Shown in pieces: positions 9,475 through 62,140 of a stretch of 64,000 nt of DNA (position 1 is its first letter; each line of letters begins with the position of its first letter). The DNA comes from Psammoneis japonica (lineage: Eukaryota). The notes under the pieces were generated by a model. The model worked only from the letters and a program-made list of their open reading frames with translations. It did no database searches and was not told the DNA's origin. The DNA is taken from assembly GCA_008632985.1 (NCBI GenBank), contig QPGO01000040.1, positions 191,719 to 255,718 on the forward strand. Direction: 5' to 3'. The translations under genes and the position numbers were made by a program.

Positions 9475-11693
9475 GTTTGAAAGTCTCCTTCGCCTTGAAA
9501 TACAGCATGTGATGGAAAGCAAAAGCCGAGCATGCTGAACAGCACACAACAACAACAAAATAAACAGATGGATGGGTGGAAGGAACAACAAAAGCAGGAG
9601 TGGAGCTGCGGCGTGGGAAAGTCCAGCAGTTGGAAAGGTGGTCGGAGAGGGCAAGACCAAAACAGGGAGATTTGGGTGGCAGGCTGAACAGGAAGAGTGT
9701 GAGCTGGAGCAGTCGGAGGAGTCAAAACAGGGTGGCTTGAGAGGAGGGGGTGGGATGATGGAAGGGGAGGGGTTGTGACAGTGGCCAGAAAAAGGAAGGT
9801 GCAAAAGTGACAGCCAGCACTGCCCAAGTGTGGTCAAAGGTAAAAGGAAGAAAAAAGATGCCTGCCTGGTTGGTGGCAGTGATGCTGGAAGAGCTGTTGG
9901 AAGAAGGTGTGCTGCAGCCTGGACACCTTTGGCTGCTTCACAAAACCCCTTGGTCTTTGTGCATTTTTGTTGCATTGATTTTAAGGCCGGTGACCAAATG
10001 TGGAAAGAATGGACCAAGAAATCATGACATCACTTTTCATTGGTTGTCACAAGGGTGGCATGTCACAGCTTGTTTTTGGCTTGAATTTTGCCAAAACAGC
10101 CAGGTGAGTGCAGAGTGCATTTGTCCACCAACTCTTGTGTTTGTTGTGCATTCTTTGTGTGTGCCAATGAAGGTCAGATGTGAATCAAAATCTTGTGCAT
10201 CATGGCAGCACGTGCTGCATTTTGGAGAATGGGTGGCTTGCACCAAGCCTCAGCTCAAGCAAAACATGGACAGATCCCAGAAAAAAGAGCACAATGCATG
10301 CAAACAAGAGTCATGGCAATTGGGCACAATGTGCTGGCAGATCTTGTTGCAGTGTCTCTGGTCCAAGCACAGCCAGGATGACCCAACCTTTCATTTTGAT
10401 GTGGGGGACAACAACTTTGGAGAACAAACTTGATGGTGTCATCACACAACAGACAATGTGCGCACACTGTGACTTGAAGCACCCTTTTTTCTGTGTGCGA
10501 TGTTTGCTGTCTGCAGCCAGCTGCACACAAGACACAAGTGTGCTCTCTTCTTTTGTTGTGCAAGCCCTCCATTTGTTTTTGAGTGTTTTGTGTTCTTTCT
10601 GACAGGCAGCAACAAGTGCTTGCAACCTTTCACACCTGAAAACTCATCTTGCACCACTGGCAAAGAGTGCCTGTCTTTCAGTGGGTGACAGCAAGAAGTC
10701 ATTTCCCACAACTTTTTTCTTGGGCCTCTTTTCTGGAAAGAGAGTGCACAAAAGAAAAGACTTGAGAGACAGCTGAGCAGCCACTGTGTGCTTGAGCAAG
10801 TCTGAATGAACCACAGTCAGACAAAGCAGAGGGGCTGGAGAGGTCAAGAGAGTTGGGAAAGCAGCCACAAGCAAGGCCCCATTGACCAAGTGGAAGATGA
10901 CAAGAGGCTTGGTTGAAGCAGCTCTCTGTCTGTTTGTGGGTCACAAAAGAGGAGCACACCTGCGGCATGGGTGGAGAGGGTGCCAATGTGGTGGTGCTGC
11001 AATTGACTTGACAGCCATCATTTGAAGTCAACAAAACTTCAGCTGGCATGCAAAAAGTTGGCACAAAAGAAGTGTTGACAAAAAAAGTGGCAGAGCATGG
11101 GTGAAGTGGCAAAAGCAGTGTGGCTGTGCAAAAAATGACAAAAAGACCTGTGTTGTCTGGGCAGGGGCTGGAGCTTGAGCCATTTGGTGAAACCTGCATC
11201 AATCAGAAAGCATGCAGGGGGTCCCACCCAGACAACCTGTGTGCTGCAATTCAGTGGGTCCAAGTCATGGCACAGCCTGGGCACTTGCCGCAACAAAGAA
11301 AAATCTGCACAGCAACACAGGCTGCTCTCTGGTTTTCTAACAACATTGGGCTGTGAAATCATCACAGTGTTGCCAAACAGCAGCTCCCTGTGTGTGGCAG
11401 ACAAAGGTGGAGGGCAGAAGCATCAAGAAGCTCAATGACAGGATTTGAACAGGATTTGGGTGCGCGCGAAACATCACGCACTGTTTGGTTTACCGCGCAC
11501 AGTTTTGTGTGCTTTAGTTCCGCGCGTTCGCGCGCGATGCAGTTTGCTTTCGAGCCACAAGGCTCACAAGAATGATGACAGCAGCCCGGTTGTGCCGACT
11601 TGCACGTCTTTTGGCTCCTGCAACGGTCTCTGAGCGGAGACTCATCTGCCATTCAGACAGCAGCAAGGAGTTGTTGTTTGAATTCTTGCCATT

Positions 11694-11711
11694 TGCCTTC
11701 AATTTCTGTCA
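11694..11711 (+). repeat. Left copy of an 18-bp direct repeat flanking the copia fragment
   Basis: tgccttcaatttctgtca, identical to 18091-18108. Confidence 0.92.
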
Positions 11712-14700
11712 GATTGACAGTCTTGCTCATTGTCAACCCATTGAGCAACCGCCATCATCGTCGTTGATTTACCGACGACGCCATTTCAATTCTGTGTGGA
11801 CCTCCGCATGTGTTCTACATACATCGGCAAGTCCACACGCATTCAACACCAGGCATCGGCAGGAATTTAACGTCACCGTCAAGTCTCCTTGCCACTGGAT
11901 GTCTGGATTGATCACACTGCTTTTGATCGCTGAAGACACGCATCAACGGCCATGGCCAAGTCTGTCCTTGATCCTCATCCCTTGACATGCCCATTCATTG
12001 GTTGACGGTCAAGAACCCTGCATGTTCAAGGATCTTCGTCGCTGAAGACATGTGTGCGTGCACATCTTCACGGCCAAGAACTTGCACCCACTCTTCGGAC
12101 CACGGTTTTGCCACCACTCTACAAGCACACCGAGTCCATTGCACCTGATCCACCCCGGACTGCTGGTGCTCTGCAGATCTGCTGGGTCCACGAGGACAAC
12201 TGTGAGAGCAAGCAGCCGTGATTGCAGCCTGCGTTGGGGCGAGGGTGCTTTCCCGCGTTTGTTCATCCGTCCACAGTGCCTGACGCCTGCGTCAACTGGC
12301 CTGCCTGATCGGGAAATCCAACCGACATAAAATAAGAACGGTTCGGGGGTCTTGTCCACCTCCAGTCAGCTCACCTGCAGGGGTTTGCAACCCGCTGCTC
12401 TGCTCGTGGGCAACCCAAAGCGCCGCCAGCTGCGGGTTCGGACGTGCCGGCACAACTCTGCGGACCGGATGGGAAGTTTAGCACTTGACAACGAATGGGA
12501 CAGCACAGCCCAGCGACTTCTGATTTTCAAGGCAGTTCAAGATTTCAAGTCAAGTCTGTTTCAAGTCAAGTCTGTTCTCACCCAAGTTTCAAGTCTACCT
12601 TCGCTTCCCAACAAGAATTGCTTGTCCTGACACCACTTTTGTCCACCATGGTTCTCACTCGTCAGCAACAAACTGATGGTTTCGAGCACGTTGTTGGAAC
12701 CGTGCTTGCCCAAGGTGCTGGGAGCCCTCTTCGTTTGGCTTTGACCCAAGATGGCACGGACTCGCATCAAGAACTGTTCACGTTCATGCCGTCCCAAATC
12801 GACTCGCTTGAGTGCGACAACGGCACTGATGTGATCCCTTTGCCCCGCGGTTATAAGAACATGTTAGCAGCTCCAATTGGTCTGTACATTGTCAAAGCAC
12901 ACGAAGGTCTTGACGTTGCCAATGACTCCTCGTTGTTCACGCATGACGAGTTCCTTGCCCACCGCCTCAGCCCCGACTGCATGTCTTCTGTGTCCATCGG
13001 CAGCTCACCCCTCGCACCTCCACATGTCACCAACCCGACCAAGGCACGTGACCCGGTGCGAGACTTCAAGCGAGGCATCAAGCGTGATCCCACCGCTTTC
13101 ACGGCTCTCAAATCCGACAAGCAGTGGCACACTTGGCACACCTCACTTGTGGCACAAGCCCGTGCCCAAGATGTCGAGTGCATTCTAGACTCGTCGTACA
13201 AACCGACCAGTCCCGAAGACAAACTGCTCTTTGCTGAACAGCAAAAGTGCATGTTCGCCGTCTTCGAACGCATCCTTCTCACCGACAAGGGCAAGGCTCT
13301 CATCCGTGAAAATGTGGGGTCTTCTGATGCCCAGACCGTCTGCCGCGCCTTGTCTGAGCATGCGCTTGCCTCCACCCGCGCATCTGTCGAGTCCTCCACC
13401 TTGCTCACGTGCCTTGCCACCGCACGTCTTGGTGATGGCACTTGGAAAGGTCCGACCCACGGGTTCATCCTTCATTGGCAAGATCAGTTGCGCAAGTGCA
13501 AGGCACTCATCCCGGCCAGTGACCACTTCTCTGAAGGACAGAAGCGCGTCATGCTCGAGAATGCCGCACACCCTGTCGAGGAACTCCGTGCTGTCAAGAA
13601 CCAAGCTGATCAGCATCGCACGCAGAGTGGCAAGAGCCTCACATGCGATCAACACTGTGGCTTGCTCCTCTCCGCGGCAGCTCAATGCGACAGTGCGTTT
13701 CAACCCAAGACGACACCTCGAGCTCCCCGACGTGCCATGTGTGCACACGATGTCTGCTCCAACGAACCGTCCGACGATGTGTTCTGCAACATTGACGTCC
13801 TTCAGGCCAATGCTGCCTGCACCCGTGGTCCCAGCCTCACCGGTGACCAATGGAAACGTCTCCCTCCCGACCACCAACGGATTTGGGATTCGTTGCCCCA
13901 TTCCTTCAAGGTGATCATCCTTGAGCATTCTCGCCCGCCTCCCCGCAACCAGCGAGCCAGCAACTGCCATGAGTCCATTGCGGCCAACCTTCACAACCAA
14001 CGCCTTGGGAGTGACGGTGATGTCAACTTGTCCAACACGACTCCTGCTGACTCTGGTGACCCTGCTCCAAATGTGGAAGCCACGTCGGATGATCCCATCC
14101 TGGCGCACCTCACCAAGCGCAAGCCACTGCCACCCGGTGATCTGCAACGTCTGTTGTCTCCTAACCAAGCCCCCAATGCCAGTCGACTGGGGCCACCCGC
14201 TGCTGCCTCTGCCCCACCAGCTTCTGCCGATGACATGGAACTTAACGGCCGCACTCACCGCCGCGTCAAAGACCACAATGTCATTTGCTCTGCCTCTGCT
14301 CATCGCTCCACATGCACTGGTGCTCTGGTCGATCGTGGGGCCAATGGCGGCATTGCTGGCGACGACGTTCGCGTCATTGCACGCACCTCTTGCCAAGTCG
14401 ACGTTCAGGGCATTGATGACCACCAATTGGTGGACATCCCCATTGTCACCGCTGGTGCCGTCATTGAGACCCAGCGTGGTCCCGTCATTGCCATCCTCCA
14501 TCAGCGCGCATGCACGGGCAAGGGCAAGACCATTCATTCCTGCGGCCAGCTCGAATGGTGCAAACAGGATGTCAACAATCGCTCTGTCAAGGTGCCCAAC
14601 GGCTTGCAACGTGTTGCCACTCCTGATGGCTGTGTCATCCCAATTGACATCAAGGGCGGCCTGCCTCATGTTGCTGTGCGACCTTGCACTGATGCCGAAT

Positions 14701-17700
14701 GGGACACCCTGCCCCATGTCATCCTCACTGGTGATGACACATGGGATCCTTCCGTCCTCGATCACTCTGTCACTGACGACGACCAGTGGTGCGACACGAT
14801 CTCTGACCTGCAGGACGATCCCACTGCCAACCCATTTGACGAACACGGCAACTGCCATCATCGTGTCGTTGTCAACGAGACCATCATGTCCGCTTCCTTG
14901 TCTGCCGATCATGCGTTGGCCCTCGATGATCACCTCATTCCGAACAACGACGTGTTCTGCGAGTGTCATCTACACGCGATTGACCCCAAGGACGATGACG
15001 TCCTGCCCCCGGAGCGCACTGTGCAGCCCAAGGACCCCCCCTTCGAGTCTCTTCGGCCTCACTTTGGCTTCCCACCTGCCGATGCGGTCCGTCGCACTTT
15101 TGACTGCACCAAGCAGTGCGCCCGCATGCCCGCCGGCACACACCTTGGGAAGGCCTGCAAATCACCCAACCCCACCCTCAATGTGCACCGCCACAACGAG
15201 CCTGTCGCCACTGACACCATTCATGCCGACACCCCGGCCATCGACTCTGGTTGCACCAGCGCCCAACTGTTTGTTGGCACCGAGTCTGCTGTCACTGACG
15301 TCTGCGGCACCAAGACGGACAAGGAGTTTGTCAACACACTCAAGGATCAGATCCGTGAGCGTGGTGCCCCATCCAAATTCATTGGCGACCGTGCTCAAGT
15401 TGAGATCAGCAACAAGGTGCTCGGGATTCTACGAGCCCTCTTCATCTCCAGCTGGCAAAGTGAGCCTCACCAGCAACACCAAAACTTTGCCGAGCGTCGA
15501 CACCAGACCGTGAAGCACATGGCAAACACTGTCATGGATCGTTTTGGTTCGCCTGCCCACACATGGCTGCTGGCGCTCATGTGCGTGTGCTTCATGCTCA
15601 ACCATGCAGCGTCCCCAAGTCTCCACTGGTGCACGCCCCTCAAGACTCTCACTGGCTCCACCCCGGACATCAGCCCATTGCTTCGCTTTCACTGGTGGGA
15701 ACCCGTGTGCTTCCACCTCGATGACTCCGATTGGCCGTCCGAATCCCGTGAGTTGCGTGGACGCTTTGTTGGCATTGCTGAGCACGTCGGCCACCAGATG
15801 ACCTTCAAGATTCTCTCTGACGAGACTCAGAAGATCCTCTGCCGGTCCAACGTCCGATCCGCCACCACCGATCCTGCCATTCGAAACCTGCGTCTTGATC
15901 CTCCTGATGGGGAGCCACCTGAACCCATCATCAAATCTCGCCATGACGACAACCCCGTCGATTCTCCTGATGGGGAGATCAGGACACCCAAGATGCCAGT
16001 TTTCGATCCGCAAGACATCATCGGACGCACCTTCCTCATGCAGCCACAAGAGGATGGACAACGCCACAGAGCTCGCATCGTCAAGGCCGTCGAAGACCAC
16101 GAATGGAAAGTGAACGGCAATCCCGAGCTCACTGAGTTCGTCTGCTCTGTCAACAACGACGAATGCGAGGAAGTCCTTGCCTGCAACGACATCATGAATC
16201 ACATTGAGCAAGAAGACGAAGACACTGCTGTTTGGAAATTTCGACGCATCGTGCCACACGAAGGACCTCTGAAGCCTCATGACCCAACCTGGAAAGGCTC
16301 AAGCTACAACATCATGCTTGAATGGGAAAGTGGGGAGATCACGTCCGAGCCTCTTGCCATCATCGCCAAGGACGACCCCATCACCTGCGCCATCTATGCA
16401 CGAGAGAACGGACTTCTCGACACTGATGGCTGGAAGCGGTTCCGCGCCATCGCGAGGCGCCAGAAGAAGCCATTTCGCATGGCCAACCAAGCCAAGCTTC
16501 GCTCCTTCCGCACTGCACCTTGCTGCAAGTGCGGATGCGAAGTTCCCCGGAACTGCAAACATGCCATGTCACCAGACGAATGCAATGGCAACCGCAAATG
16601 GGGAGACGCAACTAATCTCGAGATGGACCAACTCGGGGAATGCGAAGTCTTCCATGACTGCGGGCCCTTCGAGTCTTCCACTCCTCCTGCTGGACACAAG
16701 AAGATCCGAGTGCACCCAGTGTACGACGTGAAACACGACGGTCGCCACAAGGCACGACTTGTAGCCGATGGGCACCTCACGGACGTACCCATCGACAGTG
16801 TCTGCTCCGGAGTGGTCTCCCTCCGTGGCCTTCGGCTGATGATTTTCCTGGCCGAACTCAACGAGTTGGAGACATGGGCCACCAACATTGGCAATGCCTG
16901 CCTTGAAGCCACCACCAAGGAGAAGCTCTACATTGCAGCCGGACCCGAATTTGGCAAACTCGAAGGACACATCCTTGTCATCCACAAGGCCCTGCATGGA
17001 CTGCGCAGCTCCGGTCTCCGCTGGCACGAGCGCTTCGCCGACTGCCTGCAAGCTGAAGGCTTCTTCCCCTGCCACGCTGAACCCGACATTTGGATGCGCA
17101 GGAACGGCAACCACTGTGAATGCATTGCCGTTTGTGTGGATGACCTCGCCATTGCCATGAAGGACCCTCAATCTTTCGTCGACACTCTCACGGAAAAGCA
17201 CAAGTTCAAGCTCAAGGGTGCGGGACCCATTGAGTTCCATCTGGGTTGCGACTTTTCCCGGGATCCTGACGGCACCTTGTGCCTGTCTCCGCGCAAGTAC
17301 ATCAAGCGCATGGTCGACAGCTGCACCCGACTGTTTGGGGAGAAACCTGCCACCAACGCCCTGTCACCTCTGGAGAAGGGTGACCACCCCGAACTGGACA
17401 CTTCCGAACTGCTGGAGCCCGATGGCATTCACAAGTTCCAGTCTCTTGTTGGTTCACTCCAATGGGCAGTGTCCCTTGGTCAAATTGACATCACCACAGC
17501 CGTCATGTCACTCTCCAGCTTCCAAGCTGCGCCCCGTCAAGGCCACTTGGATCATGCCAAACGCGTCTGTGGGTGCCTCTCCAAGATGCAACACGGCGCT
17601 CTCCGCGTTCGTGCGGAAGAGCCCGACTGTTCGGATCTCCCTGCTCCGGCCTGTGAATGGATGCATTCCGTGTGCAGCGAAGCAGAAGAGATGATCCCGA

Positions 17701-18090
17701 AGGACGCTCCACCGCCCCTTGGCAAGTTCGTCACTGCCACCCACCATGTCGATGCAAACTTGTGCCATTGCATGCTCACCGGATGCTCTGTCATGGGAAT
17801 GCTCCACTTCCTCAACAAATTCCCGGCTGATTGGTTCTCTAAGAAGCAAGCCACCATGGAGACTGCGACCTGCGGGTCTGAATTTGTTGCCGCAAGGACT
17901 TGTGTCGAGCAGATTGTCGACCTGCGCATCACCCTGCACCACCTTGGCGTCCCGATCCGCAATGTCAGTTGCATGTTCGGTGACAACAAGTCGGTTGCAG
18001 ACAGTGCCACCATCCCGCACTCCAAGTTGCACAAGTGACACACCGCACTGTCGTTCCACCGTGTGCGCGAGGCAATTGCCTCTGGTCACC
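11712..18090 (+). mobile_element. Ty1/copia LTR retrotransposon (diatom CoDi-like), truncated: partial 5' LTR/leader, no 3' LTR
   Basis: Single gag-pol ORF in copia order: protease (ALVDRGANGG), integrase (ATDT..D..IGDRAQVE..QNFAERR), RT, RNase H. Homology stops abruptly after FHRVREAIASGH at ~18090. Confidence 0.95.
12648..18090 (+). pseudogene. Hypermutated gag-pol polyprotein (frame intact, many missense changes)
   Basis: About 1800 codons without a frameshift and only ~8 Tyr. CVDD at 17133-17144 replaces YVDD; also ALHGL, GNACLEA, ATCGSEF, SCMFGDN. Premature TGA at 18036-18038 falls in KLHK(R)HTALSFHRVRE (CGA->TGA). Confidence 0.92.
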
Positions 18091-18108
18091 TGCCTTCAAT
18101 TTCTGTCA
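18091..18108 (+). repeat. Right copy of the 18-bp direct repeat
   Basis: tgccttcaatttctgtca starts exactly where RNase H homology ends. Confidence 0.92.
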
Positions 18109-19029
18109 CTCAAAACAGCAAGCTCTTTCCATCATGGCAAATGGCTGAGTGGCAGCTCAGAGCTGGGGCACTGCTTGACAAGACATTGACAGCATGCTCT
18201 TTTGTTTTTTTTGCACATGGCTGCTTTTGGAGAGCCCCCATGATTTGCAAGGCATGCCAGCCAGCATGCCGCAACGTCACGTGTGCAGCAAGCTCAGCCA
18301 ACAAGAAGGCACAATGACCAAGTTTTCTGACCAAGGCTTTGAGCCCTTCTCTGCTTCTCAGATTTTGTCTTTGTCAACAGTGCTGGGAGAAAAAACTTGT
18401 GTGCACTTCCCTGTTCTGGAGCAGCCAGCTTGCTCGCTTCTCTAAAGTCAAGAACACACTTCTGCCATTCGCTGCTGTGGTTTGTGTCACATTTTCAAAT
18501 GAAGGTTTGAACAACAGCAACAAACAATGCTTGATGTGTGTGTGTGTGGTCTCTCATCATTCTTGTTTGTTGGAGAGGATGCTTTCCTCTTCAATGGTGC
18601 CAAGAAAGTGCGCACATTTCCGAGCAGAACCAACATTGTTTCTTTCTCAGCTGATGATTCCAACTCGAGATTCGATTCCAGTTCAGCACTGTGACCGACC
18701 GTCTGGAGGGGCAATAATGCACGCCAGATGCTTGGTGGCATTCATAGTCGTGTATTGGACACTTTCGCATTCAAAAATGAAACAAGATTTATGCGTAAGA
18801 ATGTCCGTCCAAAAGATACGACCGAATTGATTGAATCCTTGCAACGTGATCATTTTATGTGATGGTCATGGAACCAAACACTTAAACTGATTGAAAGCAA
18901 CAAAGAAGGAAAGAAAAGGTAAGTATCCAGCGGTTTGTGTAGTTACCATGTTTTCACAACACATGGTGGTGAACTCGACATTGCCTTTCTCTCTCTTATG
19001 TAGCACAGACAATAATCACGAGACCCATC

Positions 19030-20208: not shown

Positions 20209-20724
20209 GACAATGAATGAATGATGAGTTGATTTGCACCCATGTGTACGTGTTTGAGGTAATTTTAGAGAAGAGAATCGACCATTTTAGAATTTCGATA
20301 AGTGAATATAAGTGTTTCTAAGCGAACTCGCATGAGACCAACCCTCTTTATTTGCTCATATTGCGACGTGCAGTCGTTGCAATTCTCAACATCGGTTCTA
20401 CACACAAGTTGATCGACATAAAAGCTACTAGAACATTAGTAGCATCCATTTGTTAGTGAGACACTGCTGATCAGTTTCTCTGCTTCTTCGTGTGTGTAGA
20501 GAGAGAGAGAGAGATGATCGCTTCCATCGGTGCTTTTTTAATCGGCCAGGGGCAACTATGCTTTAGTCTAGATTTCGATGTTTCGGATCTTTCCAGATGG
20601 TGTTCTGTGCGGCAGTCCAAGAAGAAGCTCTTTAGCATGGGATCTCAAAACAGGATGTACGCAGAGAGCGTTGGCCTTGCAAGAGATAGAGCTACTAAAG
20701 CCGGCGACCATTACTATATTGTCA

Positions 20725-22366: not shown

Positions 22367-22529
22367 TTATCTCTTGAGAGGCGTTGATGGTTGATGGTTG
22401 TTTGAATATAGATGTTTGCGATTTGCGATCTTTTTTTATGATGGGTGATGGGTGATGGGTGCGAGCGATCTTCCGCCGATGACGAACACAAAATGTAGTG
22501 GAAACCACTTTCTATCCCCAAATAAAAAG

Positions 22530-25500
22530 ACAGACAGACAAGCGAGCGCACCAGAAGATGACAACGCCTGTGGCACACGCCTGTGTGATGTCATCTGCTC
22601 TGACAAAAATGGCATGTTGTGCAAATTGCACAGTTCTTGGTCACACAAGTGCATTGTTTTGTCACACAAGGTTGCCATCAGAGGGGCCTCACTGATCAGT
22701 GATGAGCTGCATCATCCTGCTGCACATCATGGCTCGGGGGGGGGGGGGGTTGGTGGCTGCTGGGTGCTGCTGCCCCTCTTTTGGGCCCTCTGGCAGGCAA
22801 TGCTGAGGTGAGTGGTACAATTTTTTCACACCAAGCCTTTTCAGCCAGATCTTGGCAACCTCTGCACACTGTGGTTGCTGTTGACACAATGCGGTTGCTT
22901 CTTCATTCACCCATTCTTTCTGTTTGCATTTGAAGCTCCAAAGTCAGAAAAGAAAAATGAGTGCGCTGCTCACTCTCCCGCACACACACCAGGCATGGCG
23001 GATTGAGATGTTTGTCATGTGTGAAATTTTGGTGCACATGCACTGTTGCCTTTTGCCAGTTGCCCATCAGGACAAAATGGAGACAAAGACCTGTTCAGGC
23101 TTGCAAAGCGCAGGCGCAGTGGAAGATGTGGCGTTCCTCAGGGACACTTCATTGCCAGTGCTCTGGTGGCGTGTGTGTTGCCAGCCAGCTCAACCAACAT
23201 CTTTCAAGGTGCTGAGCAGAAGATGTTTTTGATGTCACTCTCCTTGATGAGCACTGATCTTCTCATTGACTTTTTTGTGCAGCCCAGAGTGGTGCGTGTG
23301 AGCGGGGCTGGCTGTTGTGTGATGCGCTGTCAGATGTGCCTGCTCTGGCAAGTGTCAAGTTGGATCACACTGGCTTTGATGGCAAGATTCTCTCTGGCCA
23401 GCTGCAGAAGGACAAATCCATTGCAGACAGAAAGGCAGTGACAAAAATCTCTTTGACACAAGCCAAACAACCAATGGCAGACCTCCAGATTTCTTCCATC
23501 CAGAGTTGTTGTTGCAGCCACTGGTGCTGCTTGGTTTCCAAGCTGGAGATGGGGTTCTTGATTGCCACAAACACAGCAATGTCTCATCGACAAGTCACCA
23601 ACATTTCACATGTGCACCAAATTGTGCTTGGGCAGCAGCTGGGTTGCCAAATCAGAGGACATGTGACTTCTTTTGACAGGCTGGCATGAGACACAAAAAC
23701 AGGAACCCATCCAGAACACAATGGAGCTAAAACATGATTCATCCATCAAGGCATTTTTTGCAGGCTTTGATTCATGCAAAGACCACAGCTGGGAGGAAGA
23801 CAGCTGGAGCAGTGTGCAAGAACATGCTGTCATTGTAAAGAGCTGACAGAAGCTCCTGATGACAATGAACAACTTTGCCTTCATCACACATGAAAGTGCC
23901 ATTGTGTCAACTGACACTTGTGTGATCATGACAGACAAACAACATTGGCGCAAGTCTCCACTGTTTTGATGACTGGTCATTTTGGCAAAGTTGTTTGTGC
24001 CACAAAAGTGCAACAAGGAGCAATGGGACAATTTTGCGCTGCACAAAGAAGCTGTCATGTTGCTGATGATTCCTTGAGCAAATGAACCTTCTGAAAAAAA
24101 AACTGACATGGCCTTGGTTGTTTGTTTGAGCAGGGCAGTCACTTTGCCACCATTGTTTTGTTCATTGGGTTGCAGCAAAAAATGCATTGGAAGTTCTGCA
24201 CCTCAGCATGCAGTGTTGAATGGAATGTCATGATGTGCTGGTGGGGCAAATCACCAGCAAGTGTGGAAGACATTTTTCTTCACCATTCACATCCTCTTCA
24301 ACAATTTTTCAAAGTCACACAACAATGAAGCTGCAAAACAAGAGCATCATGTGCTGGTGCACATGTGTTCTCCATTGTGAAATGTTGTGCAATTCAATGT
24401 TTTGTCCTTCCCATTGTGGCCCACTTCCAACAATCACACCATGCAATGAAAATGACATGAAAGCTGGACCATGTGATGGTTGTTCTGACTTGCCATGCAC
24501 AATGATCACCATGTGCAAATGTGGCAATGTCATGATGGCACTCCAGATGCATGCAGTCATGCTGCTGCCTGTGCCACACAACCAATGTTCACATGGCCAC
24601 AGCAGACTCCTGGCATGACTGGACCTGCTGCAGTGTGACAGCAATTGCCAGACCTGCTTTTTCATTTTTGCCAACAGCAATCCTCTGTGCCAGCAGCAGC
24701 CTTTGTGACCAGGCTGTGCCCCACATTCCAACATTGTGAAACAGGGTCAGTGCAACAAAAAAGAACAACAAGAGAAGCAAAAGGTGGAAATGCAACATCT
24801 CTGTCAAGTGGCCACCAAGCATCCTTTGCTCAAACCAAAGTGTGTGCTCCCACTGGAAAGATGTGGCCCTTGCAGAAAAAGGCAAAGCCAAAATGAAGCA
24901 TGGAGCCAAGGTCTTGCAAGGGCCCAAAACATTTGGGAAGGATGATGTCAAAACAAAGGTGAGATGGTTGGACCACAAAAAAGATGCTCAAGCTCCACAT
25001 GAGAAATGCACTCCAATCAATCCATGTCATTCTTGTGGCACACCAAGGCACCTGTGAAAAATTCCTCCTCTCAACTGATCTGATCATTGTGAAAAAACAT
25101 TGTGAGCAAACTTTGCTGTGCTGAACATGTCATCCATGGTGACCAGCACTTTGCAGGCCTTCCAACAAAGTTGAGCCAGCGTGGCAATGATGGCACAAAC
25201 CAAGAGTGCTGCATTTGCTCTGAGAAGATTTCAACAGAAAGGATGGTGTGACAACAACTGCAAAGTGTGTGTTCCCAATGTGTGCATCCATGTTTTTCCC
25301 ATTGATGCTGTTCCCCTGACATGGATGAGAAGAGGCTCCAGGACGTTCTTTTTGCAGACAGCAATGCCAACTTTGACATTTTCCATTGAACACTGCATGA
25401 CTCACAACAGTCATCAATGACACACTGTGCTGCACAGCTTCAAAGCACAGCAATGTGCCAATTGCTGACTGTGGGGTGCGTGCATCTCTTGTCCTGGATG

Positions 25501-28320
25501 GGCTCTTTTCCAAGTGACAACCACACCCGCCCCCCTGTTTTCACTTTGCAGTTTGCCTCATTTGCTTTCTTGCCAGACAGCATCAGGTCATTGACAAGAT
25601 GTGTGCCCCAGGGCATGACAAACACATGTGTGACCTCCACAAAAAAAGCAGGCAACACGACTGCATGATGTCCTCAACCAACTTCATGTGCAAAGGCTGC
25701 TGCCAAATTGGATCTTGCCCCATCCCTGCCAGCGGATCAAATGATGCCTGCCTTGCCAACTTCCTTGCCACACTGTTGCCACTCTGAAGATTGTGAAAAA
25801 GTGCAACTTTCATGAAAGCAGCCAAGACAGCACCACATGCTTCTCCCATGACACCGCGGACCTCTGCTTCAGCCCTGACAAAGTGGACAGAGCCTTTTGT
25901 GAACTTGGGTGCACTGTTGACCTCCCAAAACTGCCTCTGGCAACACCACCAATGTCAACAACAATGACAGGGCCAATTGTGCCATGCACAACAATGGAAA
26001 ACCCCACCTCTTTGCAGCAGTGTGGACATGCGCTGCATTCAAAATGTCCTTTGACAGCTTGACACCACCCTGCAACAAATGACAACTGACTCTGGAGCTC
26101 TGCTTGGTTGTTTGTGAGAACTCCAGGGCACAATCCAAGATGTCAGCTGAGTCAACTTCCCAGCTTGCTCATGACCCAGTCAGCTCAGCAGCCCACCCCA
26201 TGTGTGCCCTGCCTGGTGCATCTCAAAACAAAAAATGCTTTGCCAAAAACACACACACCACACAAATTGCATTAAATTGATGCCCTTGCCAACCCACAGC
26301 GCAGTTGCAGTTTGCCAAGGCAAGTGCATCAAGCGGCGCAGGAAGCCCAATGAATTTCCTTTTGGCGATCCTTTGGAAAAGCGCTGACAAAAAAAAGAAA
26401 AGAGTGCAAACTGTGTGGCCCACACAGCAGTCATGTGAGAAAAATTGTCAAGACCAGCAAACAATGCCCGGCCACCAAAAAAGTCATTTCAATGCCAGCA
26501 GTGGCAGCACCCAGCAATCCCTCCAAAAGTTGTCTTGACACCTGATGCTGCAGCGGCACCCAGCAATTTCTCTCTTGTTGAGAGATGGGGGCCAAGCATC
26601 ATCTGAAAAAAAGAGTTTGTGTTGCCTGGAGCAGCCTGCTTTGTGAGAGCTTGCAGCTGATCCAGAGGCACAAAAATGTTCTTTTTTGTTGTCAACACTG
26701 ATCTTGTGCTTGGGTGTGCAGAACCAAGGTTTGTAAATGCTTTGTTGGGCTCTCTTGTTTCCAGGTGGGAATTTTGTCTTCCACCAGCTGTTGCTGATTT
26801 GGCTCCTGCTCTCTCAAAATTTTGACAGCTTTTGGCTGACATGAGAGCCTCTGCAGGCAGAGTGCCAAGAGGTGGTGCCATGTGCTGCACATGAAAAACA
26901 TGCTGGGTGGAAGAACACACCCCCAAGCATGGAACAATGACATGATGCACAAATGAGAAAAGAGAAGGAGGTTGTTGTGGAAGGCAAAAACATGTGCCCC
27001 ATTTTGTGATTTGCAAGAGCCCACAGAGAGCTCTTGTCCAAGGCTGAAAAGGAGGAGCAGTTTTCCTTGGGGCTGGCTTGCATCAGAACTCACATGCTCA
27101 ATTGATGTGCATGTGAAAAATTGCAGCAAAATTTTCCCATGTTTGTTGATTGTTGCTCTTGCTCTTTTGGGTTTGCTGGCCACACAGTCAGCAGATTTTT
27201 TTGTTTTTGATCTTTGTGCCACATGGTTGCAAAATTTTGAAGTTGTCAGGGAGTGAACAGAAGATTGGTTTTTCCCTCCCATCAATTTGCATGCATTGCT
27301 TGTTTGTGCTTCCAACAACAAGCATCTCAAGCAGCTCCTTTTTTCATGCTTTGCTGTTGGGAAAGAGTGCAACAGATCTGAGCCAGCTTTGTGCTGCCAG
27401 TCTCCATGTTGCTGAGCTGACACTTGCCACACACAAGAGTGCATGTTGGTCACACCAGGTTGCTGCTGGATGGTCCTCACTGATCAGCCATGAGCTGCAT
27501 TGCTGGTCAGTGGTTGCCCCCTCTGGATCCTCACACTTCAGGTGCACCTTTCTTGTTGTCATGTCTTTTTAGCTGCTGGCAGTCTCACAGCACACCAGAC
27601 ATGTGCGCCATGCTCCAAAAAATTCACCTGAGGGAGCTTGGAAGATGCGCTGATTTTCACTTTCACTTCACGCAACAACGACATCTCTGCCATGACAAAA
27701 CACAATGCCACGTGCAATGTGCATCAAGTCAATTGCACCTTGACAGCATGGAGCCAGTGCCACTGTCTTCATTGAAAGATGGCCCAAGAAGCTGGGGTGA
27801 AAATGACACATCTGTGCTTGCAGCTGGGGCGATGATTGCTGCAAGATCCAGGAACACTTTTGCACTCATGCCATTGCTGGAGAGTGCCAACCTTGTGCTG
27901 GTCAGTGCAAGCAACTGCAGCATTTGGGTGACTCAGAGAAGCAGGCAAAATGGAGAGGTGCTGCGCTGTTGAACCTTGGCACATTTGAAAATTTGGTTGC
28001 GAGCTTGGAATCGGTGCCAGCCACGGGGGGCAAGAAAGCATCAATGCCACGCACCAATCCCAGCATCAGAAATGAAAGAGCTCGCTGATGCCTTTGACCC
28101 ATGATTTGTTGTTGCAAAGAAAGGAAAAACACTTTTTTCATTGCTCCAGCTTGTCAAAGGAGTCGCTTCTTGTCAAGACAGCAAGAAGCCGTCGTGCAAC
28201 AACAACCGCAAGGAAGCCCATGACAAGCAAATGTCCTTTGCAAAGCTTGATGATTGTCAGCATGCTTTTAAGGAGTGCACCCTTGCTGAGTTTGCAAGCA
28301 AAAATGAAGGCTTCAACAAG
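22530..28320. other. TpA- and CpG-depleted hypermutated domain 2 (decayed, unidentifiable sequence)
   Basis: TA almost absent (rare survivors near 22816 and 26734), CG rare, strong TG/CA excess; only short Cys/His-rich ORFs. Confidence 0.93.
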
Positions 28321-54900: not shown

Positions 54901-55415
54901 CTACAGTGGGCCCTGGAACTGATGAAAAAGTTAAAGCCCTCGTATTATAAGGTCACTAGTAGAGAGATTGCATGCTGGCAAAACACGGAACAATCATGTA
55001 GTTCAAAGATACATTCGCGCTTTGGAAGGAGCAGAACGAATGGTTCAGGATTTTCGTTGGGGCAAGAGGATAATAGTCCCGCTTTGTGATTGAGGCAGAT
55101 TCAACTAGCTAGAGAGGTATGGTGGGGAGTGTCGAAATGGTGTGCGATGCAGGCAGCCCCTCAAGTTCCTCTCTGGGGTACGCTGGATTGCTCTATAGCC
55201 AACATTATAGCTTTTGATGGGTTTGGACAAAAAGCAGTGTCTTTCCGTACTCGCTTTATGGATGTACACACGTTACCTACTTTCTAAATGAAACGTTGTG
55301 AGCAACTACACAGGTGTAAACTCGAACGCGCCCGTCATCAACTTTTTCGGTCACGTCGTTGCGGCCTAGTTTTCAACTGCTTCATGGATACTTGTACATA
55401 ATAATGGCTCAAAAA

Positions 55416-56859
55416 TTAGGATTGCCTTTCGGACGACGACGACGATGTTTTGAGAAGCAAAACTACAGCCAAGAGACCGGTACCAAGCACGACACTCATC
55501 CATTGTTCATCCTGTTTCTTGTGTGCACGCTTTAGTTCTTCCAGGGTGACGATTTCTTCGGCTTCTTCTCGTCTTTTGGTTTGGACTGTTCTAGACCATC
55601 CTTTTGCGCGATGCTTCCACCCATGCGCCACGTATTCCACGTTTCAAAAAAGACACTCTTGTGTTGGGTCGTTGTATAGGCTCCATCGCTTGTACAAAGG
55701 GCATGTTGCAACGATCGAGATACAACAGTCTCGCTTGGCATTGATGCTTGGGCGTCGTCGCCATAGTCATGACCCTCCAGTAGTAATTGGAAAAAGGCAT
55801 TACGAGAATTCTCTGCAAGATTGTGTGTCTTGTAATCATCTTGTGTTTGTTGATGATTGGGCAAAAAGTACTTGGTAAAGATTCGTTCAAAGAACTGTAC
55901 AAGTGTTGGATAATCTTTCAAAATGGCAATCAAGTGCACATTGCCTAGAGCGTCTGCTAGATGTGACCACAACATGGCATCCACCATGGTTGGTTTGGTG
56001 GAAGAAACGAGGTATTCTTGATTATCCTTGGATAGTAGCGCATGTTCCAACACGTTGTAACATTCTCGAGCCATTTCTAGAGCTTGTTCTACCGAAATAA
56101 CACCTGCATGACGCCGTTTGGCTAGAACCATTTCTGTTCTGGCTTGGAGGGGACCCAAAAACCAACACGAACCCCCACCGCCAGTATAGCCTCGACTGGC
56201 TTGTAAGCATTGGGGACGATAGACTTGATGCCATGTATGGTCGTCTTGAAAGCCAAGTACATCCAGCACGGCAGAAAGCTTGGTTGCAATCATGGTCTGG
56301 TACAAGAGCGATTGATCCTTCATGGACTTGTCTAAATCACCATTCAATTTTGTTTCTGGAAAACTGACTTGCAAATAATCCAAAATACAATTTTGGCATT
56401 GTTATTACAACTTGGATCATGCCGTCCCACCATGCTGGGTGTCTTGATGTTTTGCAAACAGGGTAAAGGACCCGTTGACTCCATGGCTAAATAGGGAGAA
56501 TTCGTTACAACGTACGGTACACCCGCCATGTTTAACACACACTGTTCCAACCATGCAGGACGGTATTGAATCAAGAGCAAACTCGGTTGATGACTTTTTG
56601 TATCTTGTTCTTCTACCTTTTCTTCGTCTACTCCCCATACTTCGGTCCAACCTTCACTTCGTTTTTCGAGATTGGGAGGAAAACTTCGAGACGAATCAGC
56701 ATTATGAAGACTGCATAGCATCATGGATTGAAGTAACAGTGACAAGTCATGGTTTTTTTGTCGTTGCTTGTTATGGACGTTATTGCCGTCGTCACGCCTG
56801 TTATTGCGATCAAACAACGTCATGGTGGATGTTCGCATGTGTGTGTGTTCATTGTTCAT
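55416..56859 (-). CDS. Metaxin-like (GST-fold, Sam37/Tom37 family) protein with C-terminal TM anchor
   Basis: VPYVVTNS...STGPLPCL, ARECYNVLE..L....YL..STKPTMVDAMLWSHL and YPTLVQFFERI; TM segment WMSVVLGTGLLAVVLLL. Two apparent 1-nt frameshifts (~56385, ~55630); start uncertain. Confidence 0.75.
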
Positions 56860-57029
56860 CGTAGCGTCCCGGACGTACCGGCATGCAGACGCCGGTGCCA
56901 GAACTTCTGTATGTGATGCTGAAGGCGGAGCCTGCCTTGCCTCTGGGCGACTCATCATCCGATGAGGAGTCAGAAGTGAACCTTGCAAGAGGGAGAGGAT
57001 CGACAACTCCTCTCACTGTTGCAAGTAAA

Positions 57030-60000
57030 CCCAAGAATGCAAATGAGAGTTGCAGCTCTTGTCCCAATGATCTCACCAGGCAGGACAGGCAACTGTGCTT
57101 TCCTTGTTGCAACAGCAACTTGGGGCTCACAACCCTGTCCTGCGTGTGTGTCCAATTCGTTGTTTGCGCAGTGACCAGGCCCTGCAACACATTGAGTTGC
57201 AGCTGACACAGCAGTGGGTGGAACACTTTGTTTTGAGACAGCACAAACATCCTGCTCCCCCCCACAAAAAATGCGTGGGGCTTTGCTTGACAAAAGATCG
57301 CTGGCGAGAACAATGTGCACAACATCGCACGCAAGTGCATTGTCAGTGTTGCCAGCACCCCACACCCTCAGGTGTGAAAACAAGCACTGCATCTGAAACC
57401 AGAGACACACCACTGCCACCACCCCTGCATTTCACCCCACAGCACCACAACACATCCAGCCCCATTCTCCCAGCTGTGTGAGTTTAGAACCAGGCCCAGC
57501 ACCCCCCTGGCTGCTGGCTTCCTCAACAGCGCTGCACATGGATCACATGTGAGCACAAGTGCCATTCGATTGAGAGTGGCTGCTCCCATTCCACAGAACT
57601 GAGAACAAATGAGCTGGGCCCGGTGAGCCCACACACCATTCTTTGTGGCTGCAGTCATGTTGTTTGGCCCAGAGCCGCGAGCTGCCAAACAGCATCAAAC
57701 TGTGACATCTGTGCTCACCCAGCTGCATTGACCAAATGACATTTTGCAATCACACAGCAGAATTGTTTGACGATTGCCCTCTTGATGTGCAGCTTCTCCT
57801 TCAAGTGACAGCTGACATGCATGCAATGTTTCTCATTTTGATGTGCACCTCTTCAAGCAACATGAACAGCACAGTGTGAATGTGTGCTCATGACACCCAG
57901 TTTCTGCAACAACAAGTTCAAGAACACATCTCCATGCACATGTCAACGCCATTGAAGAAAACAAAAAGAGCTCTTTTTTGTGTTGCTGCACAATGCATGC
58001 TGAACTGGGCAGTTTGTTTCTCCCCTCTTGTTGTCACAGAAATGAAGTTGTGTTGTCATTTCCAGCACATGTCCGTCCCACACAGTTTGTGAAGAGCTGC
58101 CTGCTGTGTGTGCAGCAGCCAGATGATTGGCCACAGAACCATCTCTGATGTCAGTGTTCAGGTCAGAGGTCAGAGGTCAGAGGTGTGGCAACAGCACAGA
58201 CAAGTTTGCAGTCTTTTGATGGCAGAATTTCATGGTGGAGCATGCGCCAGCACTGCACCGTGCAGTGGCAAAATCCCATGAAAAAAGCAAAACAAGATGA
58301 GCTGCAAGATGATGTGCACATCAGCCATGCACACATCAAAAAATGATTCTCTCCACTGTCACATCATTCTCCACCTTTGTGCTCTTTGTGATCTCTGCCT
58401 GGGCAGAAGGCAATCTTGAACGTTGCAGACTTCAGATGCAGCTGCAAGATGCCAATCCCACCATCAATCCCAAACAGCTGCAGTGCCCCCTTTCTGATGT
58501 CTTTGGCACCAATGATGCATTTCAGTGCACCAGGAGCCACTGCAGCGAGCAGCCCTGACATGCCTGTTGTGCATTGGAAGATGGTTTCTTCCACATTGAA
58601 GGTCGCCAGGATGGATGCATGCGTGACATTCAGTTGTGGTTCAATGAATGAGCACAGTGGAAGCTTCAATTGTGGCACCCCAACCAGTGCAATTGTTGGC
58701 AAGGATGCTGATGTCATCAAATTTTTGGGTGGTGTTGGCGGATTGTCCAAGTGCTGCTGCCCCAGTTCATCAGCTGCCAATGAAGCATTGACACTTGCTC
58801 TGGACATCTGATTGGCCGGTCTCTTCCAGATCAGACCCTCTGACTGTGATGCAGGATGCAAGCTTGGTCCACTGTCCCAGAGCTGTGTTTTTGATGCTGC
58901 TGTTGGTGAGTGTCAATTCAAGCCAAATGCCTGCTCCAATGTTGCCAACAGCAGTTTGTGCCTCAGTCTTTCTCCTGGAAGCCACAAGTGCATCTGCAGT
59001 CCAGGCTTTGAGGGGGGCAACGGTGCTCTTTGCTGAAATGCAACGATCAAGCACTTCAGTTTTGACAATGGCAGAATCTGCAAGCCACATCCTCCAACCA
59101 CACCGAGCACTGTCAAGGATGCTGATGGCAATGGACATGCGACCGCCATTGATTGTGATGACTCAGACCCTTTGGCAAACCCAGGGGCCACAGAGACATG
59201 CAAAGATGGCATCAACAATGACTGTGGTGGCACTGTGGACAAAGCTGATTGTGTTGAGGCACCCTCAGATGTCCCGTCTGATGAGCCTTCTGCTCTGCCC
59301 TCAGATGACCTCCCATCTTCATCGTTCCAACCATCAAATGAGCTTTCTCTTCCATCCCAAGTCAAACTCCATCTGCATTTCCTGGTGTCAGCTCACAGCC
59401 TTTTGTGCTTCCATCTGGCAAGCCAATTGTCAGCTTGATGCCATCACAATCCCCATCAAGCACACCAAGTGAAATGTCTGCATTGGCTCATCCCTCTTGG
59501 GCCCCTTTCTTCCATCCCAAGTTCAACATGCAGCAGACCAAACAGCTGTGCCAACACCGGCATTTTCTTGGCCTGCAAGATGCATCATGATGAAGGATTT
59601 GTCAGTGATGATGACTGCCCTGTTGATCCAGGTGGCAGAGTTGCCTGCTTCATGGTGTGCTGTGACCAAACCAACAATGGCGGTGGCTGGAGGACTCTGT
59701 GCACCTGCTTCCCCTGGATCTTCAGAGTCACTGAAAATCTCATCAACCACATTGCTGACCATGTGCGGTGCAACAATTGTTCAATCTCCAAAGATGAACA
59801 CTGCCCTGGTGGGTGCTTTGTGACAACATGATGGATGGCATGAGGTTTGTAGACAACAATGGTCGAAACTCAAAATGCCAACATTGCGGGGGCAAAGCCA
59901 GAGGCTGCCAGGTGCAAAACTCCCTGGGACCATGACACCCATGTGGCCAATGGCACAGAACATGCAACATTTGCTGTCCACATCTTTCATGGTGAGTGTT

Positions 60001-62140
60001 TGGATTGTGCACTTGTCAGGGCTTAGATTGTTCTGTGGCATGGACAGGCAGCAGAGGGATGTGCCAGTTGAACAGAGAACATGGCATTTCCCTTCCTGCA
60101 AAGAGAGCAGTTTGCAGTCTTCATGTCCTGAAAGCAAACTTTGGGAGCATTGGTTGAATGAAAGTTTCACAGATGTGCCAAATTGGCGCATTTCAAATGG
60201 ACAGGAACTCGCCAGCATTTCATTTTGCTTGCGTTGCCCCACATTGTCCTTGACTGACTGAGCTGGTCAACAGAAAGGCAAACTGTCACTCCATCATGCA
60301 CCTGTTCTTCAAGGAGTGCACATTGTCAAAAATTGAGTGTTTGGCATCAAGGTAGAAACTCAAGTTGTGTGACACTGGAACTTTGATGCAAAATGCAGCA
60401 GCAAAAACTGTGCAGCATCAGCACACACCTGACCACTGCCAGAGGAGCTCTTTCTCAGAAGTCTGCATTGTTGGTCTGATTTGTTGTGTCCAGAGTTTTG
60501 TTGCCAGCACATGCATTGTTTGTTTGTTTTTTATGGAGAACGTGCACACCCGTTGAAGATCTGTGCCATGAGAAGCAGCATGAAGAGAAAGGCACCTGAG
60601 GAAAAAACCAAAACCACTTGAATTTGAAGCAGGAACTCTGTTGAAATCGATGCTCAACATGACATTTTCCAGAGTGCCACACTCCGGTCATTCTTTTGTC
60701 TCAAGTGAAATGTGGTGCCAGTGTTCATTCTCTAGAGGCACATGTGCAACACTGCCAGTCATCAAAGCCAGTCCAATGATCACCTGGAAGACTTTTGGGT
60801 TGAAATGAACACAGTGTGCTGGTTGCACAGGGTGTCTCCATTGGTCTCCAATTTGCACCAAACAAGCTGTGCTGCCAAGCACACACACTGCACTCTTCTC
60901 AAAAAGAGCTGGTTGCCACTTCAGCTGTGGCAAAGCAATGGTTTTCTTGGCTTTCCAACAAATGCTTGAGTGGCTGGCTGTCATTGTGCTGGCAAAATGT
61001 GTGTTGTGTGGGTGAAAAGTGGGAGGAAGTTCTTTGGCATTTTGTTTGTGGGGTGACAGCTGAGCTCATCTCATTGTCTGGATTGTGTGCAAAAAAAGAC
61101 TGCAGCCAGGGTGGAGAACAGAGAGTGCTCTTCCTTTTGTGGCTGACGTCATTGACACATGTGATGTTGTTTTCCCCAGTCCTGGCTGCTGATGACCTCT
61201 CGTGGAAAAGGACAAGCAGCTCTTGAGTGTCCGCTCCTTGTGTTGTTTGAGCAAATGTGAAATGCAGAGAACAAAAGCCTCAAATTGTCTGGATGCTTGC
61301 AAAGCAACACTGTGCTCCACGTTCTCAATCTTGTCAAAACTCAGCATGGTGACCCCTCTGTGCACAAGCTCAAAGGTGAAAAAGAGCAGCCTTTGAGATG
61401 GCTCAGTGTGCTCAGTGCAGCCTTGCTGCTTTGGCCTGCCTGCTGTTTTTGTTGTTGTTGAAAACTGACTCTTCAGCTCAAGACAAGCCCAAGCAACCAC
61501 ACGTTTGGTTGGCAGCACACCAGCTTCTTTGTTCTTTTGCAACCTTGCTCCATGCAGTCCAAGGAGCCACAATGAGAGCACAGAAAGTGAGGTGCGGCAC
61601 TGCAGAAAAAAGAAGCTGTGAACTTGGTGGCAGCAATGGCAGCCAAGATCTGGCTGTGTCAGCATGTTGCAAGTCCACCCTGTTTGCTGACAAATCTGAT
61701 TTGATTTGCAAGCTCTTTCAAGAAGTGGCGGGGCCCAAGGAGCTCTGCCCACTGCCAGCTCCCCGTTGGCCACTTTTCCACCAGGTCGAGGTTCTCGAAA
61801 ATGTTGCGGCAGACATTTTGTCAACAAATGTCACCGTTTGCATTTGGAAGTGGTCCAAAGGTGGTTGTGGCATGCAAAGAAATGCTGGCCATTGCATCAC
61901 CCCCTTCCCAGCAACTGCGTGCTTGTGTTGCAGACAACAGATGGTGTGCAAGCACTCAGCAACACACTGGAAAGTTCTGAAGCGACAGCGCTGACATTGA
62001 CACAAAGCGACACAGGATGAAGGCCTTTGATGGAGCGAAAAGAAGCCTGCATTGTGACAGAAGATGGCAAATTATGATGACCGCCACAGAGGCAGAATTC
62101 GCCTTGTGTTGGCGAAAAAAAAAAAAATGGGCCTCTGCTC
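57030..62140. other. TpA- and CpG-depleted hypermutated domain 3
   Basis: TA seen only a few times (near 57486, 59849, 60025, 60353, 60733); CG sparse; TG/CA excess; ends at a TA-rich palindrome. Confidence 0.93.
58343..59830 (+). pseudogene. Hypermutated pseudogene of a secreted multidomain protein: EGF-like, MopE-type Asp/Cys repeat, PS linker, fibrinogen-like start
   Basis: Signal peptide at 58343. ECQFKPNAC..CLSLSPGSHKCICSPGFEG (~58905-59015). DADGNGH...DCDDSDPLANPGATETCKDGINNDCGGTVDK (59118-59245). FMVCCDQTNNGGGW (~59648-59690). Internal stops and frameshifts. Confidence 0.78.

Follow-up and report, generated by a model that had tools for sequence, protein, structure and literature searches.

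TpA-specific A:T-to-G:C hypermutation in three intergenic blocks, one carrying a Ty1/copia retrotransposon, in a putatively diatom-like genome

Here we report that three blocks in a 64-kb stretch of contig QPGO01000040.1 (assembly GCA_008632985.1; the whole stretch of 64,000 nucleotides is called the window), the first of which carries a 3'-truncated Ty1/copia retrotransposon, have been almost cleared of the dinucleotide TpA by a process that is real, directional, TpA-specific, two-stranded and domain-restricted. The blocks are probably transposon-type intergenic DNA of a diatom-like stramenopile that has been saturated by a targeted, TpA-specific A:T→G:C transition process and overlaid with a slower decay of methylated CpG. 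As far as the available text of the preprint goes, the same TpA→TpG/CpA hypermutation was seen in Bigelowiella natans during mutation accumulation (Mettrop et al., bioRxiv 10.64898/2026.01.13.699255), and the "reverse-RIP" idea (RIP, repeat-induced point mutation) put forward in the initial annotation of the window is in essence already in print there.

Composition was measured as observed/expected (o/e) ratios of dinucleotides per kilobase across the window, and the block edges were refined with 100-bp counts. The TpA ratio was 0.00–0.20 throughout approximately 10–19 kb, 23–28 kb and 57–62 kb, compared with 0.35–0.92 (mostly 0.5–0.7) outside these blocks, and inside them TG and CA rose to ratios of 1.4–2.4. 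AA and TT remained at 1.0–1.5 (AA 1.24 over the blocks as a whole) and AT at 0.5–1.4. These values agree with the initial annotation, which had described three blocks almost without TA and rich in TG and CA, persisting A-runs and AT, and normal use of TA by the genes between the blocks. The refined blocks span 9560–18715, 22525–28270 and 57026–62073; they fill entire intergenic spaces and end about 300–400 bp short of the adjacent coding regions. Their edges are sharp to about 100 bp, with the exception of the right edge of block 2, beyond which the sequence stays TA-low for about 300 bp. In all three blocks 49 TA steps survive, against about 848 expected from the background (0.0425 per step multiplied by block length), and the longest TA-free runs measure 2437 bp (23836–26273) and 2365 bp (57485–59850).

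Blocks 2 and 3 and both sides of block 1 are depleted of CpG as well, a parallel loss that the initial annotation had overlooked. In blocks 2 and 3 the CpG ratio is 0.02–0.26, against about 1.0 in genes; it is also low in the block 1 flanks (9560–11460 and 18091–18715), and the copia core (11462–18090; GC 0.57) retains CpG at 0.76–0.90. Both TA and CpG are at ordinary levels in the genes that separate the blocks. The total frequency of pyrimidine-purine (YR) steps is the same in the blocks (0.231–0.253) as in the background (0.243). When normal DNA of the window was saturated in silico with TA→TG/CA and CG→TG/CA changes, its 16-dinucleotide profile matched that of the blocks with r = 0.967, versus r = 0.685 for the unmutated background. 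Surviving TAs shun ATA/TAT contexts (8 of 49 versus 46% in the background, p = 2e-5), which hints that TAs flanked by A or T are hit most readily. The features of the three blocks are as follows.

9560..11461, no strand: left flank of block 1; 4 TA in 1.9 kb, CpG frequency 0.0053, no Pfam match
11462..18090, + strand: Ty1/copia element, 3'-truncated; RVT_2 domain, 30 TA in 6.6 kb
11462 to ~12400, + strand: long terminal repeat (LTR) or 5' leader of the copia; about twice the depth of the element interior, as an LTR would show
12495..18038, + strand: gag-pol open reading frame (ORF) P0001 of 1847 aa; still open, Tyr replaced by Cys or His
18091..18715, no strand: right flank of block 1; 1 TA in 625 bp, a continuation of the old TpA- and CpG-poor DNA
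22525..28270, no strand: block 2; 7 TA, CpG frequency 0.0089, TG 0.1196, CA 0.1185
57026..62073, no strand: block 3; 7 TA, CpG frequency 0.0119, TG 0.1201, CA 0.1171

Directly outside the left edge of block 1 lies a direct repeat of about 34 bp in two near-identical copies (9404–9470), and a run of about 15 G is found just within the left edge of block 2 (22736–22750).

The direction of the change is readable in the gag-pol ORF, because Tyr codons (TAY) serve as an unambiguous reporter of TA change. The translated ORF, P0001, matches RVT_2 with E 6e-24 and is 53–56% identical over its entire length to relatives of 1,845–1,933 aa; tblastn with these relatives spans 12597–18116. It was aligned with 60 of the 120 listed relatives (1800–2000 aa), and a column was counted as conserved if at least 80% of the relatives carry Tyr. 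At the 38 conserved Tyr columns P0001 has 24 Cys (TGY), 6 His (CAY), 3 Phe, 1 Arg, 1 Trp and 3 Tyr, and the other conserved residue classes are kept at 78–100%. A tblastn repeat of the test, with 34 positions, yielded 22 Cys, 5 His and 3 Tyr. Tyr accounts for 0.43% of P0001 versus 2.86–4.97% in the 120 relatives, and Cys for 3.84% versus at most 1.61%. The canonical reverse transcriptase motif is YVDD; the catalytic motif of P0001 is CVDD.

The context of the change is equally narrow. At codon position 2, A→G is found at 24 of 38 T-A sites versus 3 of 191 C-A, A-A and G-A sites (p ~1e-19); the initial annotation had let its case hang on such an enrichment at TA over AA, CA and GA, and the comparison with the relatives bears it out. 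At codon position 1, T→C is found at 6 of 38 sites before A versus none of 52 before T or G (p = 0.004). Both results, together with the paired TG and CA copies described below, support its claim that the A of 5'-TA is converted to G on either strand. Error-prone synthesis of the Pol eta type (WA→WG), one of the sources it had proposed, is disfavoured, because only 2 of 57 A-A sites show A→G and because AA stands at its full ratio of 1.24 inside the blocks. The raw TG-versus-CA skew was also considered as a strand marker and is uninformative because of base-composition skew.

TA occurs in P0001 at 0.44, 0.33 and 0.27 per 100 codons at the three codon positions, versus 3.1–4.5, 1.0–5.4 and 5.2–8.1, respectively, in six control elements. 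Because TA is equally rare at all three positions, the window copy has decayed neutrally, and the ORF of this dead element remains open because TA→TG/CA changes never create stop codons. An avoidance of TA selected in the elements themselves, through codon usage, UA-dependent RNA decay or escape from a TA-specific nuclease, is contradicted for the window by this equal purging of all codon positions and by the destruction of conserved and catalytic Tyr (CVDD). Non-coding blocks are purged too, and copies differ by TG↔CA. What speaks for such avoidance is one copia element among environmental relatives (L001), which keeps its Tyr codons, has no xTA codons and is normal in its 5' 800 bp; as an explanation of the blocks it is highly improbable.

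In L001 the TpA ratio is 0.04–0.2 from about base 800 onwards (L001:800–3516), where the copia coding match starts, and the first 800 bp, which are 5' non-coding, have normal TA. Of 9 conserved Tyr the element retains 8, and 19 of its codons are in-frame TAY; there is no Cys excess. Its 895 codons include no xTA, and TA spans a codon boundary 5 times. It represents either the same pressure filtered by selection in a constrained element or an extreme, selected avoidance of UA. L001 was considered as a clean second case and set aside as ambiguous, its TA loss being limited to the coding part and its Tyr being kept.

Copies of the copia were compared with the window copy by means of 11,525 contigs from the same sample that lie on positions 11462–18090 at 90–99% identity. 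Transitions make up the differences at 223 of 252 variant places, with a contribution of C→T and G→A at CpG. Of 259 variant rows, 40 were displayed, 32 of them inside the copia. Paired TG↔CA differences account for 12 of these 32 rows (6 sites), TA in other copies opposite CA or TG in the window for 3, CG↔TG/CA for 9 and other differences for 8. At 4 of the 6 displayed paired sites the other copies show CA and the window TG; at the conserved Tyr codon 387 the window has CAC and most of the depth of the other copies has TGC. The TG↔CA pairs and codon 387 imply that the same ancestral TA was resolved differently among copies, on either strand.

The summed contig depth on the copia is 58,000–125,000, versus about 60 in the flanks, which gives a rough figure of ~10^3 copy-equivalents for the family. 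Since other genomic copies run beyond 18086 and the window copy ends at 18086–18090, the latter is 3'-truncated. No LTR pair and no 3' LTR were found for it, the best match being 28 bp long (11684–11711 with 18081–18108). The copia is nested inside older DNA without TA and CG (9560–11461 and 18091–18715); one unique contig spans 9001–11461 at a depth of about 62, and one spans 18091–22749. The leader (11462–12494) retains 10 TA in about 1.0 kb versus 19 in 5.5 kb of the ORF and is thus less saturated. Contigs of a further run of the same sample (X3; 0.16 million letters) lie on the copia only (11002–18338), as expected if only very-high-copy sequence was assembled.

The contigs also bear on the suspicion that the signature is an artefact of sequencing, base-calling or polishing. 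The assembly itself may derive from the only run that contains the region, and nothing else favours an artefact. Contigs from an independent assembler reproduce the TA-free blocks with 2–8 differences per 1.5–3.6 kb, the effect ends sharply at gene borders, and the Tyr→Cys/His pattern is coherent in a protein that is otherwise conserved; an artefact is therefore almost certainly not the explanation.

The losses of TpA and CpG form two layers, because the copia has gone about 16 times further in TpA loss and because relatives lose CpG alone. In the copia, 3 of 38 Tyr TAs survive versus 41 of 48 ancestral CGN Arg codons, an approximately 16-fold difference in log-survival; the remaining 7 of the 48 Arg codons became Cys, His or Gln. 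Among 22 environmental copia relatives, 21 have a TpA ratio of 0.51–0.85, and many have a CpG ratio of 0.02–0.6. In four of them (L015, L009, L018 and L010) CpG stands at 0.02–0.16 with normal TpA, which shows that CpG decays in other hosts with TpA intact. Tyr is retained at the 22 environmental loci, with L010, which is diverged (7 of 11 Tyr, 3 His), and L020 (1 of 3) as partial exceptions. LTR retrotransposons of diatoms are CpG-methylated, according to the accessible part of the source (PMC2806351), and the CpG layer is probably the ordinary slow decay of methylated CpG to TG/CA. The old relics have completed both losses.

A single deaminase of dual specificity that takes TpA (on A) and CpG (on C) in one process would account for the erasure of both self-complementary YR steps in blocks 2 and 3, and ADAT2 enzymes are said, in a statement cited in the available preprint text, to act on A and C in DNA (10.64898/2026.01.13.699255). 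The copia core, however, has lost 92% of its Tyr TAs but about 15% of its Arg CpGs, and L015, L009 and L018 combine CpG ratios of 0.02–0.16 with normal TpA. The contexts also differ, being a 5' T for the A and a 3' G for the C, and we regard one enzyme for both losses as very unlikely.

According to the two-layer reading that we prefer, each 5'-TA-3' step would become TG by A→G on the strand read or CA by A→G on the other strand. The process would act on DNA copies after their separation, on both strands, and would halt within about 100 bp of the block edges by genes. In a second, separable layer, about 16-fold slower, methylated CpG would decay to TG/CA, and old relics would end without TA and without CG, all of their YR steps being TG or CA. 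This may be the same kind of targeted TpA hypermutation as arises de novo in B. natans. It may be aimed at silenced or foreign DNA as a defence, with targeting by chromatin or small RNA, and its chemistry could be deamination of adenine, through inosine to G, by a TadA/ADAT2-lineage polynucleotide deaminase. In the natural tRNA substrate of TadA/ADAT the A is preceded by U (U33-A34).

Several points weigh against this reading, and the first concerns the strands. Tyr→Cys is four times as frequent as Tyr→His (24:6, binomial p = 0.0014), a sense-strand excess that is not expected of a strand-blind DNA process and leaves room for a component linked to transcription or RNA. A preference for the sense strand or for the non-transcribed strand is possible. 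Flanking context was considered as the cause of the excess and rejected, as there was no clear difference in the preceding base at these small numbers. The excess is also what speaks for an editing of the element before integration, in which RNA (A-to-I at UA) or cDNA would be deaminated in each retrotransposition cycle, as in APOBEC3-hit retroviruses, the copies being born mutated and the chromosome left untouched. The match between the mutated domain and the element at its 5' end (11462) agrees with this, and so does the fact that most TA losses appear common to the copies. On the other side, both strands are hit, as seen from Tyr→His at 6 of 38 codons and from CA in other copies at 4 of 6 paired sites, and the blocks other than the copia are saturated with equal TG and CA (0.1196/0.1185 and 0.1201/0.1171). 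In B. natans, moreover, the signature arises in situ in integrated DNA-virus sequence, as described in the part of the preprint at hand (10.64898/2026.01.13.699255). We consider editing before integration quite unlikely.

The timing of the loss is a second point. Among the copies, places polymorphic at 10% or more comprise 67 T>C, 53 G>A, 47 C>T and 56 A>G, hence at most about 100 TG↔CA sites. If the ORF was like its relatives, control-element densities put its ancestral TA at about 215–290, and much of the loss may therefore predate the amplification of the family. The signature could also be ancient and the process extinct, since the evidence here is a footprint and not de novo events. The run that supplied the confirming contigs (X1) may be the assembly source, which makes this confirmation something other than independent chemistry.

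A third point concerns the chemistry. TA is its own reverse complement, and A→G is consequently not separable from T→C on the other strand; adenine would be the altered base under the preferred reading, and all sequence results fit T→C equally. A lesion of thymine, in which a T in TpA modified by a TET/JBP-type enzyme (e.g. to 5-hydroxymethyluracil) mispairs with G, would take advantage of this symmetry. 5-Hydroxymethyluracil is found preferentially at TpA in some algae. Within the window there is no TET/JBP-type enzyme, and the sole published proposal for the signature, in the available preprint text, is adenine deamination (10.64898/2026.01.13.699255); a thymine lesion is unlikely. The genes and domains of the 64-kb window include no deaminase either, as the initial annotation had observed of the enzyme, and this absence of a gene to which the activity could be assigned counts against targeted deamination.

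The last point is the origin of blocks 2 and 3 and of the block 1 flanks, in which self-comparison, Pfam, ORF and deep searches found no recognisable transposon or viral remnant. A blastn self-comparison of the blocks as possible copies of one family returned only a 73-bp match (22642–22712 with 27430–27500), and exact 28-mer seeds in purine/pyrimidine space, which cancels transitions, gave no match between blocks. The 66 stop-to-stop ORFs of at least 90 aa in the TA/CG-free parts had no credible Pfam match, and the longest ORFs are within chance for TA-free DNA (P 0.14–0.25). A deep search with a 263-aa ORF returned one match (E 3e-4) in six short stretches and no credible relative. The one strong Pfam match is a 30-residue Cys-rich MopE metal-binding motif in block 3 (59037–59435, + strand; E 4e-10); it is suspect and may be a by-product rather than a gene remnant, because TGY (Cys) codons are inflated. 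Block 2 has a depth of 60–82 and, like the block 1 flanks, occurs as a single copy at ≥90% identity; run X1 contains a fraction of 0.98 of the sampled words of 56000–63000. The position of blocks 2 and 3 and of the block 1 flanks, and the nested copia, suggest that these parts are of transposon origin. The confinement to repeat or silenced DNA postulated in the initial annotation thus stands for the copia core and for the edges, which are resolved to about 100 bp next to genes; a foreign origin of blocks 2 and 3 is no more than suggested.

The normal DNA of the window carries intron-poor eukaryotic genes. Their products include two gametolysin-type M11 peptidases, a 5'-nucleotidase, a trypsin, TFIIH Ssl1, a protein kinase, GLTP, GST and ubiquitin E1. 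Every named relative of Ssl1 is a diatom (42–54% identity), and in an identity matrix its distance to diatoms is comparable to that of the centric Odontella from pennates (49–53%). The best named matches of ubiquitin E1 are diatoms (36–44%), followed by oomycetes (30–36%) and then plants. These relatives of Ssl1 and E1 make the host a stramenopile whose nearest kin are the diatoms, possibly one that falls outside the raphid pennates; it is not Bigelowiella.

Some neighbouring loci deserve mention. Two adjacent genes on the minus strand (232–2587 and 3944–5464) encode gametolysin-type M11 metallopeptidases, one of them with a PKD domain. A long ORF on the plus strand (37809–41945) consists of tandem repeats of about 375 bp with 74–86% identity and gives a weak, multi-stretch Pfam signal for GLEYA (adhesin-type); it is probably the gene of a repetitive cell-surface protein. 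Diverged tandem paralogues with 67–74% DNA identity lie at 29165–31229 and 32518–34720, and each ends in an ORF with a Laminin_G_3/concanavalin-like lectin domain (30690–31589 and 34208–35176).

An A:T→G:C change at a single dinucleotide, in invading DNA only, runs opposite to fungal RIP and APOBEC editing, as their mirror image. Previously reported in one rhizarian alga, it now spans two deeply separated lineages, with retrotransposons as targets besides integrated viruses, and the loss of TpA can be compared quantitatively with CpG decay. This opens a comparative route to the enzyme through the deaminases common to the carriers of the signature. A natural T-A-specific DNA adenine deaminase would be of interest for genome-defence biology and for base-editing technology. 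Where TA has been erased, TAA and TAG stops disappear and long false ORFs persist as a result, and the resemblance to the source families is lost; gene calling and repeat annotation in algal genomes will be misled by such regions. A wider reading, which we consider possible but doubtful, is that TpA erasure is a defence conserved across stramenopiles and rhizarians. It would then act in diatoms as the chief irreversible silencer of retrotransposons, with a speed about 16 times that of methyl-CpG decay and a bias towards the non-transcribed strand; active copia lineages would survive by shedding every synonymous TA and keeping Tyr, the state seen in L001. If this wider reading is true, a comparison of genomes that carry the signature with genomes that lack it would point to the DNA adenine deaminase, a natural T-A-specific A-to-G DNA editor.

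Among known systems, fungal RIP resembles the process reported here in being a transition-only, repeat-confined and sharp-bordered hypermutation that permanently kills transposons and leaves a dinucleotide signature. RIP changes C:G→T:A, mostly at CpA, and creates TpA (e.g. PMC2621366, in the part accessible), whereas here A:T→G:C changes destroy TpA, and single-copy blocks are affected as well. The expectation from RIP, with TpA up and CpA/TpG down, fails in the window, where the TpA ratio is 0.00–0.2 and that of TG/CA 1.4–2.4. Deamination of methyl-CpG (CG→TG/CA) accounts for the missing CpG of blocks 2 and 3, of the block 1 flanks and of many environmental relatives; removal of TpA is beyond its reach, and in the same copia it lags about 16-fold behind the TpA loss.

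A-to-I editing by ADAR/ADAT-family deaminases and hyperedited retroelements share the A→G outcome, and ADAR favours U/T 5' of the edited A, as stated in the available text of the B. natans preprint (10.64898/2026.01.13.699255). RNA is the substrate of these enzymes, whose edits would become fixed on a single strand only, whereas here both strands of chromosomal copies have changed, with a TpA specificity that is near absolute and a change that runs to saturation. An A→G change of the transcript strand only fails on the sense T→C at 6 of 38 Tyr codons, on the CA/TG pairs among copies and on the near-equality of TG and CA in blocks 2 and 3. APOBEC3/AID editing of retroelement cDNA is likewise hypermutation of a deaminase type, which inactivates LTR retroelements and leaves its fossil record in the genome; in the accessible part of the source it is C→U, seen as G→A on the plus strand, and differs from the A→G and T→C at TpA found here (PMC4866542).

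The closest likeness is to B. natans, with near-exclusive A→G/T→C, at TpA only, on both strands, in foreign-type DNA beside a normal genome. According to the part of the preprint available (10.64898/2026.01.13.699255), two integrated viral regions exceed the remaining genome in mutation rate about 1000-fold, with de novo changes at about 1e-7 to 1e-6 per site per generation in some lines only, and 230 of 231 single-nucleotide mutations in these regions are A→G or T→C, all of these at TpA. The same text counts 324 TpA-poor coding sequences and, genome-wide, 124 TpA-poor, TG+CA-rich clusters of 1-kb windows, with an enrichment for reverse-transcriptase and DDE domains, and its authors propose an ADAT2-like DNA adenine deaminase. 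The main text of the preprint, as available, has no mention of CpG, retrotransposon, LTR, copia or diatom, and no report of TpA loss in diatoms was found in the literature searched, including diatom transposon papers, although that search base was incomplete.

The two cases differ in several respects. B. natans is a chlorarachniophyte (Rhizaria), whereas the genome studied here appears nearest to diatoms (Stramenopila). As far as the preprint text goes, its targets are giant-virus and virophage inserts, and here the demonstrable target is a Ty1/copia family of ~10^3 copies; the TpA ratio is 0.45 in the region of nucleocytoplasmic large DNA viruses (NCLDV) of B. natans and 0.00–0.05 at saturation here. 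The TpA loss is layered here with CpG loss, unlike in the available B. natans account, and shows the 24:6 sense-strand excess; it is seen as a footprint, whereas de novo events were seen in B. natans. The phenomenon itself is thus already in print; new here are a distant lineage, a retrotransposon family as target, saturation, and a measurable relation to CpG decay.

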